The translations under genes were made by a program, and so were the position numbers. From positions 1 to 58,432 of the forward strand of contig JBDTUN010000644.1 in assembly GCA_040007715.1 (NCBI GenBank): a DNA stretch of 58,432 bases, in the 5' to 3' direction. This document shows, in pieces, positions 18,509 to 18,829 of the stretch. Position 1 is the stretch's first letter. The number at the start of each line of letters is the position of its first letter. The notes below the pieces were generated by a model. It was not told the origin of the DNA, did not search any database, and was given only the letters and a program-made list of their open reading frames with translations. Source of the DNA: Acidobacteriota bacterium. Its GTDB lineage: Bacteria > Acidobacteriota > Blastocatellia > RBC074.

Positions 18509-18634
18509 AAAAATAAAAGGCGCTACAGTCGTGGGATTGCCTGTAGCGCCTGATAAATTGCGATCATCTTCCTCACCGATGATGACCGCATGACACCGTC
18601 AGTGGATTTAACCACCTGGTATCTCGTTGCCCCA
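18509..18634 (-). ncRNA. Candidate sigma54-dependent small RNA (about 125 nt)
   Basis: Bounded by a sigma54 consensus (18645-18660) and a terminator (GGCGCTACAG / CTGTAGCGCC then TTTTATTTTT); contains internal hairpins; no ORF in the track. Confidence 0.55.
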
Positions 18635-18644
18635 CCCAAGCTAG

Positions 18645-18660
18645 TGCAAGCACGATGCCA
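18645..18660 (-). promoter_or_regulatory. Sigma54 (-24/-12) promoter
   Basis: Minus strand TGGCATCGTGCTTGCA, with exact GG-N10-GC spacing and a close match to TGGCAC-N5-TTGCA. Confidence 0.7.
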
Positions 18661-18829
18661 GACCACTGCCACACCTGCCTAATTGCCTGATCATCAATAA
18701 TGACAGGCTCTTGAGCATTTTTAGCGTTGATTTGCCGTCGCCGCTTGATTGATCTGAACAGGTAAAACTTTCTCGGAAGTGAAAAAAAGGTGTGTAAAAA
18801 TTATCTCCAGGAAAAAGAGGGCAGAGGGG

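Follow-up and report, generated by a model that had tools for sequence, protein, structure and literature searches.

Small RNAs (sRNAs) that depend on the sigma factor sigma-54 have been described in several bacterial lineages. In Vibrio, the Qrr1-5 sRNAs depend on sigma-54, LuxO and Hfq, and qrr1 lies beside luxO; in enterobacteria, GlmY serves as a sigma-54-driven decoy and has a sibling RNA homologous to it; Pxr of Myxococcus and relatives is a sigma-54-dependent sRNA of one soil-bacterial lineage, with tandem paralogues in some genomes; and sponges of the CrcZ type can be sigma-54-driven. Here we describe an element from an Acidobacteriota bacterium of the class Blastocatellia (assembly GCA_040007715.1, contig JBDTUN010000644.1), for which an initial annotation, made from the letters of the DNA, had proposed an unannotated sigma-54-dependent sRNA of about 125 nucleotides (nt). 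The window, i.e. the whole stretch of DNA that was analysed, is 58,432 nt long. The element fills positions 18807-18509 of its minus strand, where two upstream sites, an AT-rich block, a sigma-54 box, a three-hairpin RNA and a U tract follow one another in this order.

In many respects the element resembles Qrr: it has a sigma-54 promoter with activator-type sites upstream, several near-identical sibling copies per genome, and a nearly invariant unpaired stretch beside hairpins and a terminator, Hfq is present, and the activator-type sites seem to serve mainly RNA genes. Unlike Qrr, it matches no Rfam model, belongs to a different phylum, carries sites of the GTAA-N3-TTAC type and not the LuxO site, and has no activator gene adjoining any copy (107 loci, up to 1.5 kb). 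With GlmY/GlmZ it shares homologous three-hairpin siblings, some sigma-54- and some sigma-70-type-driven, a conserved hairpin module that is a possible protein handle and, in one family (f3), a place after a GlmM-like gene at 9/10 loci; the difference lies in the missing Rfam match and in a GlmM-like neighbourhood confined to that one family. Like Pxr, it forms a sigma-54-type sRNA family limited to one soil lineage, with tandem copies in some genomes, but without an Rfam match and with another structure and other conserved words. The GGA exposed in a hairpin loop recalls CsrB, RsmY and RsmZ, whereas only one GGA is exposed and CsrA was not found in the genus (0/22 genomes). The known systems compared include the Qrr1-5 sRNAs of Vibrio (PMC10162802) and GlmY/GlmZ of Enterobacteriaceae (PMC3045617). 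The same phylum has two further candidate non-coding RNAs with no fixed gene neighbour, the motifs Acido-1 (RF01686) and Acido-Lenti-1 (RF01687) described for Acidobacteria in PMC2864571; neither model matches the region, even at E up to 10.

Rfam 15 gave no match in the whole window at gathering scores, the outcome that the initial annotation had named as support for novelty. With E values up to 10 allowed in the region, only ncS025 and a fragment of the Giardia U1 model (Gl_U1) appeared, and both were rejected. The model ncS025/NcS25 (RF02869), the only bacterial one to score, reached 20.6 bits vs a gathering score of 46 (E = 0.32) and rested on generic hairpins and a terminator, and the RNA is not a member of that family; the paper on NcS25 of Burkholderia (PMC10117139) mentions sigma54. 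No description of the RNA was found in the full-text literature searched (small RNAs of Acidobacteria and Blastocatellia, sigma-54, RNA motifs). The RNA family is new; Qrr, GlmY/GlmZ and Pxr are earlier examples of its kind, sRNAs that depend on sigma-54 and come with sibling copies.

Promoter, structure and conservation of the RNA

On the reading that we prefer, at a probability of roughly 0.62, the element is a free-standing sigma-54 sRNA gene of ~125 nt, activated by an enhancer-binding protein (EBP), whose product acts in trans by base pairing and belongs to an undescribed, class-wide family. Comparison among genomes shows the unit conserved as a block in varying neighbourhoods, at 1-11 copies per genome. 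That other genomes keep the unit whole is the decisive evidence for a signal beyond chance.

The -24/-12 promoter TGGCATCGTGCTTGCA lies at 18660-18645 on the minus strand, with its GG at 18659-18658 and its GC at 18647-18646; it matches the consensus TGGCAYN5TTGCW exactly, and the precise GG-N10-GC spacing claimed in the initial annotation is confirmed. The promoter word alone is within chance (4 matches in the window vs 5.8 expected, at up to one mismatch). Its conservation was followed in a MAFFT alignment of 54 copies from the family (A1), which holds the best copy of each of 30 genomes and 24 copies chosen for diversity, further BLAST matches in the family being left out. GG and GC stand at identical positions in 52/54 of these copies, the exceptions being one GT for GC and one box shifted by 1 nt, while the six-base spacer from GGCA to TTGC comes in 34 versions; the distance from box to conserved 5' end is 10-11 nt in 54/54. 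All 33 distant copies, taken from three other families and the two most divergent genera, have the motif GGCA[CT]N5TTGC 12-13 nt before GGGGCA, so placed that 10-11 nt separate its end from the conserved 5' end. Among 66 RNAs of type A, recognized by the 5' start NNGGGGCA and drawn from a wider set of 90 model hits, the box lies 10-11 nt upstream in 65, the remaining one being cut by a contig end. Conservation of the promoter in homologues, on which the initial annotation had made its proposal depend, is thereby found, with the box at a fixed distance. The C of the GC at 18646 places the predicted start at 18634/18635, exactly where conservation of the RNA begins. The genome encodes RpoN (PF04552, one match, 193.9 bits) and 46 matches to the sigma-54 activator domain PF00158, ~36 of them strong.

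The sRNA is predicted to span 18635-18509 of the minus strand (127 nt by the model), with its +1 at 18635/18634 and its 3' end at 18518-18509. It opens with an unpaired 5' end, GUGGGGCAACGA (18635-18624), a candidate seed that is nearly invariant in the 54 copies. Hairpin P1 (18623-18592) consists of two stacked helices, GAUACC/GGUGUC enclosing GGUGG/CCACU, and is followed by hairpin P2 (18589-18560), formed by GCGGUCAUC/GAUGAUCGC and exposing the invariant loop word GGUGAGGA at 18577-18570. The intrinsic terminator (18550-18509, U tract included) has a 10-base-pair GC-rich stem, GGCGCUACAG/CUGUAGCGCC (18550-18519), a loop of 12 nt with UCCCAC at 18536-18531, and the U tract UUUUAUUUUU at 18518-18509; a consensus scan missed this terminator because of the length of its loop. 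The box, hairpins, terminator and AT-rich motifs of the initial annotation are each present on the minus strand where it had placed them.

The stretch 18634-18505 folds at -54 kcal/mol (z = -6.1), and 0/200 shuffled sequences fold as well. RNAalifold on A1 returned four helices with 31 pairs, corresponding to P1 (its two stacked helices), P2 and the terminator. In this alignment, which was not fitted to any structure, 13/31 pairs are changed on both sides, vs 5.0 +/- 1.2 in shuffled alignments (0/500 reach 13) and 1-4 when the structure is slid along the alignment; paired cells amount to 99.0%, vs 95.0% after shuffling and 32-48% for the slid structures. Compensatory changes affect 7/9 pairs of P2 and 6/11 of the terminator within the family, where P1 shows no variation. 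In the distant families (33 copies), 27/31 pairs change on both sides, including 10/11 of P1 and 11/11 of the terminator, in an alignment that was fitted to the model and hence leans towards its structure. The two copies of this genome themselves differ in a compensatory manner, AUC/GAU being replaced by ACC/GGU in hairpin 2 and CAG/CUG by CGG/CCG in the terminator.

Nearly invariant and unpaired in the 54 copies are the 5' end GUGGGGCAACGA, the P2 loop GGUGAGGA and the terminator-loop word UCCCAC. The sequence GGGGCA(A)GAGA at the 5' end, unpaired in the consensus fold, is kept class-wide, and the P2 loop word is invariant in the distant copies too. In most sigma-54-type copies the 5' GUGGGG is complementary to the loop UCCCAC, and both words are missing in the sigma-70-type siblings described below.

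A second copy in the same genome (G000:C39:326-478) is 90% identical over exactly the part from the -24 box to the U tract (query 18662-18507) and lies between a nadB-like open reading frame (ORF) and a membrane-protein ORF, a place unrelated to the window locus. By BLAST, the unit was found in 78/87 genomes of the family, which is also the whole of its order sampled, covering all 17 genera with 1-9 matches per genome; here as elsewhere, counts across relatives are not independent observations. The BLAST alignments run from the -24 box to the U tract, and some matches lie a few kb apart on one contig. A covariance model of the RNA (R1), which scores the window RNA at 144.5 bits (E 2.1e-41), extended the count to 82/87 family genomes and to 53/55 of the high-quality ones, with 1-11 copies each. 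This genome has two copies, members of its genus have two to five, and numbers elsewhere rise to 11. R1 found nothing in five family genomes, which represent three genera and include one whose completeness is only 67%.

Across the class, R1 matched 101/151 genomes sampled, in four families: 38/38 in f1, 19/38 in f3, 33/34 in f6 and 9/9 in f9. Genus g26 of f3 gave no match. One of the 19 f3 positives is an unpublished genome (G185), and no other result rests on it. A single marginal match (E 0.0099) was obtained among the 14 genomes of f4, and none among the 17 genomes of f2, f5, f7, f8 and f10 taken together. In a sample of the phylum 7/151 genomes matched, every one inside the class. The 139 genomes that represent the remaining classes in this sample gave no match, in a search run with stricter filters and therefore to be read as not found in those searched, not as absence.

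The P2 hairpin pattern also occurs in at least 120 stretches of named genome records, whose titles are mostly Pyrinomonadaceae, Blastocatellia and Acidobacteria bacterium. Records titled 'uncultured Heliomicrobium sp.' or 'Clostridia bacterium' (L147, L162, L163) carry the RNA with its sigma-54 box, and the labels or the binning of these contigs may be wrong. At G017:C12, G015:C330 and G057:C9 (L049-L051) a single contig carries two sRNA gene copies in the same orientation, separated by 2.9-5.4 kb, and one of these genomes has 10-11 copies in all; such tandem copies and copy numbers point to recent local amplification.

Upstream sites, sibling RNAs and candidate partners

Two palindrome-like blocks, GGAAAtnATTTCATAGC and GTAAGAATTAC or GTAAGTTTTAC, are conserved in the family at distances of ~110 and ~140 nt before the box, and paired sites of the same kind are found in other families, e.g. 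GAAATTTTTACGC ... GAAAAATTTACGC, GGAAATTCTTACAC ... GTAATCTTTAC and also GTATTTTTTACATAG. The copy in the window has slightly degenerate versions of these blocks. Its putative distal activator-type site, GAGATAATTTTTACAC (18807-18792, minus strand; the first 14 nt, 18807-18794, being GAGATAATTTTTAC), stands at -140 and aligns with the GGAAAtnATTTCATAGC block of the 54 copies and with class-wide sites of the form ...TTTTTACAY. The putative proximal site, GAGAAAGTTTTAC (18774-18762, minus strand), resembles the family palindrome GTAAGWWTTAC in degenerate form; its distance from the box is -112, compared with -111 for copy 2. The suggestion of the initial annotation that AT-rich motifs upstream could be enhancer sites would agree with this class-wide pair of sites. 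Between the upstream sites and the box lies an AT-rich block of the form tTTTATTG...TTT, GCCTGTCATTATTG in the window (18708-18695, minus strand), which is kept in copy 2 and has the consensus ..cc.g..tttattg...tTt in the 54 copies; it is a candidate DNA-bending site of the IHF/HU type. Among 413 box-like sites in this genome, as collected with crude patterns, an upstream site and a sigma-54 box are combined only at the two sRNA genes. The activator thus seems to serve these RNA genes above all, as LuxO does Qrr.

Neither the GGGGCA 5' end nor the UCCCAC loop is present in some R1 matches scoring 50-59 bits; these have sigma-70-like promoters (TTGCC-N17-TATAGT-like) but retain P1, P2 and the terminator. 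Sigma-70-type siblings of this kind were seen in named records of metagenome-assembled genomes (L111, L116, L117, L123, L133, L138, L145, L161 and L164), with a conserved GGUGAAUCC loop in P1. In what appears to be a third, shorter kind of RNA, the P2-like hairpin alone is retained, and a different hairpin and a terminator come after it. Its representative in this genome (G000:C582, ~7330-7480, plus strand; locus L274, near 7392) has a TTGACA-type promoter and a U-rich tail, and its hairpin, CUGCUGAUG-gGGUGAGGA-CAUCAGCAG, presents the same invariant loop word as the sRNA. The word GGTGAGGA occurs 83 times in the genome, and only three of these occurrences, in the C582 unit and the two sRNA copies, sit in a hairpin of at least 6 pairs. 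Because the sigma-70-type siblings and the third RNA keep the same hairpin, the GGUGAGGA hairpin is a shared module.

As for possible protein partners, one copy of Hfq is encoded in the genome. Of the two genes that the initial annotation had proposed to look for, rpoN is thus present, as given above, and csrA was not found: CsrA had no match in this genome (93.6% complete), nor was there one anywhere in the genus, whose 22 genomes are all carriers of the RNA, whereas 21/87 genomes of the family have it. The only exposed GGA is that of the P2 loop, a second one being part of the P1 stem. The interpretation of the loop as a CsrA-type site, and of the RNA as a sponge of the CsrB/RsmZ type, was rejected because CsrA was not found in the genus.

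A scan of 6890 windows upstream of ORFs gave as the best partner of the unpaired 5' end a 15-nt perfect complement, GTCTCGTTGCCCCAC (G000:C836:1847-1861), with a duplex energy of -29.4 kcal/mol vs a mean of -12.4 (standard deviation 2.3). This site immediately follows a hisF-like stop codon; ~11 nt further on comes the Shine-Dalgarno sequence, and 26 nt further on the start codon, of an ORF resembling secreted alpha/beta-hydrolases. Within the genus, TTGCCCC is kept in 13/21 orthologous hydrolase leaders, mostly as TCTTTGCCCC(C)TCAC, so that the complementarity is only partly conserved, and this leader complement is only a lead. Outside the RNA genes the exact 14-mer occurs in 8/87 family genomes, the backwards control in none. 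The conserved C-rich word right after the hisF-like stop can be seen at G000:C836:1845-1890 and in the orthologous spacers (L245-L265); in this genome it became the 15-nt perfect complement of the sRNA's 5' end.

Complements of the candidate seed are mildly enriched upstream of ORFs: TTGCCCCAC occurs 8 times vs 2.9 expected (reversed word 0 vs 0.9), and TGCCCCAC 17 times vs 7.2 expected (reversed word 4 vs 3.6). Several of these matches precede ORFs with signal-peptide-like starts, as assessed by eye. Two further candidates, at C493 (~5750, minus strand) and C319 (~310, plus strand), were discarded; they are small GTTGC-CCC-GCAAC hairpins upstream of ORFs, not leaders, and scored as partners only because of the common word GTTGCCCC. 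Plain lists of 10-mer complements were uninformative.

Neighbouring genes and rival readings

The spacer that holds the whole unit, 18496-18829 (334 nt), separates two convergent genes: an SDR-like ORF on the minus strand, ending at 18830, and an EEP-like (endonuclease/exonuclease/phosphatase) ORF on the plus strand, ending at 18495. Elsewhere the surroundings vary, and the unit is kept as a block with its own promoter and its own terminator. In f3 a PGM/PMM (GlmM-like) gene lies upstream at 9/10 loci and an aroB-like gene downstream at three; at the main-type loci of f6 (7) a Ham1-like gene lies upstream in 4/7 and an ORF of no assigned family downstream in 6/7; and in f9 a convergent transglycosylase gene is found at 5/6 loci. 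At L083-L091 (f3) the sRNA gene starts 170-190 nt after the PGM/PMM-type gene on the same strand, an amino-sugar echo of GlmY/GlmZ that is possibly a coincidence.

Apart from the element, the window holds a second exact sigma-54 consensus word, TGGCACATCTCTTGCT (41234-41249, plus strand), in the spacer after a 659-residue ORF (39185-41164) and 120 nt before a 538-residue ORF (41370-42986), which we take to resemble a 4-alpha-glucanotransferase. Elsewhere in the genome, a 776-residue frame at G000:C135:2508-4790 (plus strand) has its match to the GlmS N-terminal domain divided into two pieces (model residues 1-70 and 71-250) that lie ~1.5 kb apart, an arrangement compatible with an intein-like insertion; of the main glmS gene, one part is at an end of contig C427 and the other at an end of C914.

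Under the reading of a free-standing, base-pairing sRNA, an EBP would bind the paired GNAA-N3-TTAC-type sites ~110 and ~140 nt upstream of the box and, on some signal, would remodel the sigma-54 RNA polymerase, and transcription would start at 18635/18634 and stop at the U tract near 18510. The RNA would then act in trans on mRNA leaders by base pairing, probably with Hfq, through its invariant unpaired 5' end (GUGGGGCAA...) and perhaps also through the UCCCAC terminator loop. The GGUGAGGA hairpin, as a module common to the sigma-70-driven siblings, may connect different signals to the same downstream partner.

A number of observations weigh against this scheme. On the side of the activator, no EBP gene lies within 1.5 kb of the 107 RNA loci, and within 10 kb one was found at only 2/20 loci, both in one family. 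The start, end and expression of the transcript are predicted only. The complementarity of GUGGGG and UCCCAC shows no compensatory change, so that a pseudoknot or a masking of the 5' end is unproven. As to targets, the 6890 upstream windows were defined by crude ORFs and start codons from a simple script; none of the 21 further genomes of the genus has the exact 14-mer complement at the orthologous place, and its matches in another genus fall inside a coding region; of two further targets that were tried and rejected, C777 has no orthologue in the genus and the site at C935 is kept in 1/17 only. Finally, words complementary to the GGUGAGGA loop show no enrichment in front of ORFs, and for the loop a protein-binding role therefore fits as well as a seed role.

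In another reading, the RNA is sigma-54-driven and works mainly by binding a protein through the GGUGAGGA hairpin, as sponge, decoy or cofactor, and not by pairing with mRNAs. The loop is invariant in all 54 family copies and in the distant ones, the hairpin is reused in homologues with other promoters and in the shorter third RNA, its complement shows the lack of enrichment just mentioned, and GlmY provides a precedent. The only candidate that can be named, however, is CsrA, missing not only in the genus (0/22) but in 66/87 family genomes, mostly carriers of the RNA; a single exposed GGA compares poorly with the many of CsrB/RsmZ-type sponges, and no partner protein is linked to the RNA gene. 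We regard a mainly protein-binding function as possible but rather unlikely, while a role of P2 as a protein handle may either compete with base pairing as its main rival or complement it. That the element is a leader or attenuator acting in cis on the next same-strand gene is improbable. Such a gene does follow within 45-130 nt in two other families, often an aroB-like one in f3 and a ~460-residue ORF without a Pfam match in f6, but at the window locus and at copy 2 a convergent gene comes next, what lies downstream changes from family to family and from copy to copy, a strong stem with a U tract ends every copy with no alternative pairing seen, and the multi-copy spread into unrelated places fits a free-standing gene.

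Still less can be said for a protein product. Two ORFs of 49 and 33 residues overlap the unit; neither is conserved, and the two ATGs of the window copy are missing in the second copy. A small leaderless protein read from the GUG at +1 could appeal to a frame from GTG at nt 1 that stays open for 36-42 codons in 38/54 copies, yet one single-base indel (31 copies with the base vs 23 without) and another (8 vs 46) shift this frame between close copies, and the peptides of different copies are therefore unrelated, the 54 copies yielding 45 distinct stretches of 15 residues. In-frame stops interrupt the window copy, the distant families have one base fewer after GGGGCAA, and the substitutions in the stems are compensatory, all of which makes such a protein very improbable. 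We give almost no credence to the view that there is no independent gene, the terminator ending the SDR operon and the sigma-54 word being a chance match. The word is indeed not above chance (4 vs 5.8 expected), and the hairpin may well halt transcripts that run on out of the SDR gene, as well as, with lower efficiency, those from the convergent EEP gene; against this, the unit from box to U tract is kept in hundreds of copies beside unrelated genes, with the box at a fixed distance while the spacers vary. A terminator serving the upstream SDR operon alone had been named in the initial annotation as grounds for giving up the sRNA, as had a promoter not conserved in homologues. The former idea fails because the copies keep the unit next to unrelated genes, and the latter is contradicted by the alignments; an unannotated sigma-54-dependent sRNA of ~125 nt in Acidobacteria is supported by its conserved promoter, its structure and its spread.

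Significance of the RNA family

Acidobacteria are among the most abundant soil bacteria, and to our knowledge almost nothing is known about their RNA-based regulation. In its furthest form, the free-standing sRNA reading would make the family a class-wide post-transcriptional hub with a logic like that of Qrr and LuxO, evolved independently: a dedicated EBP would have only the 1-11 sibling sRNA genes as its direct targets, with sigma-70-driven siblings alongside, GGUGAGGA would be the handle for an RNA-binding protein other than CsrA, and the type-specific 5' end GUGGGGCAA, masked by the UCCCAC loop until target contact, would select leaders of secreted and envelope proteins. We consider this combination, taken as a whole, doubtful.

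What the comparison yields is a strongly conserved sRNA family with a covariance model, a promoter type, a candidate activator site and a conserved candidate seed, and with these the signal behind the sigma-54 activator and the control role of the RNA become testable in cultivable carriers. The occurrence of sigma-54- and sigma-70-driven homologues with one invariant hairpin suggests a modular design, and the shared hairpin points to a possible new RNA-binding partner in a lineage that is mostly without CsrA.

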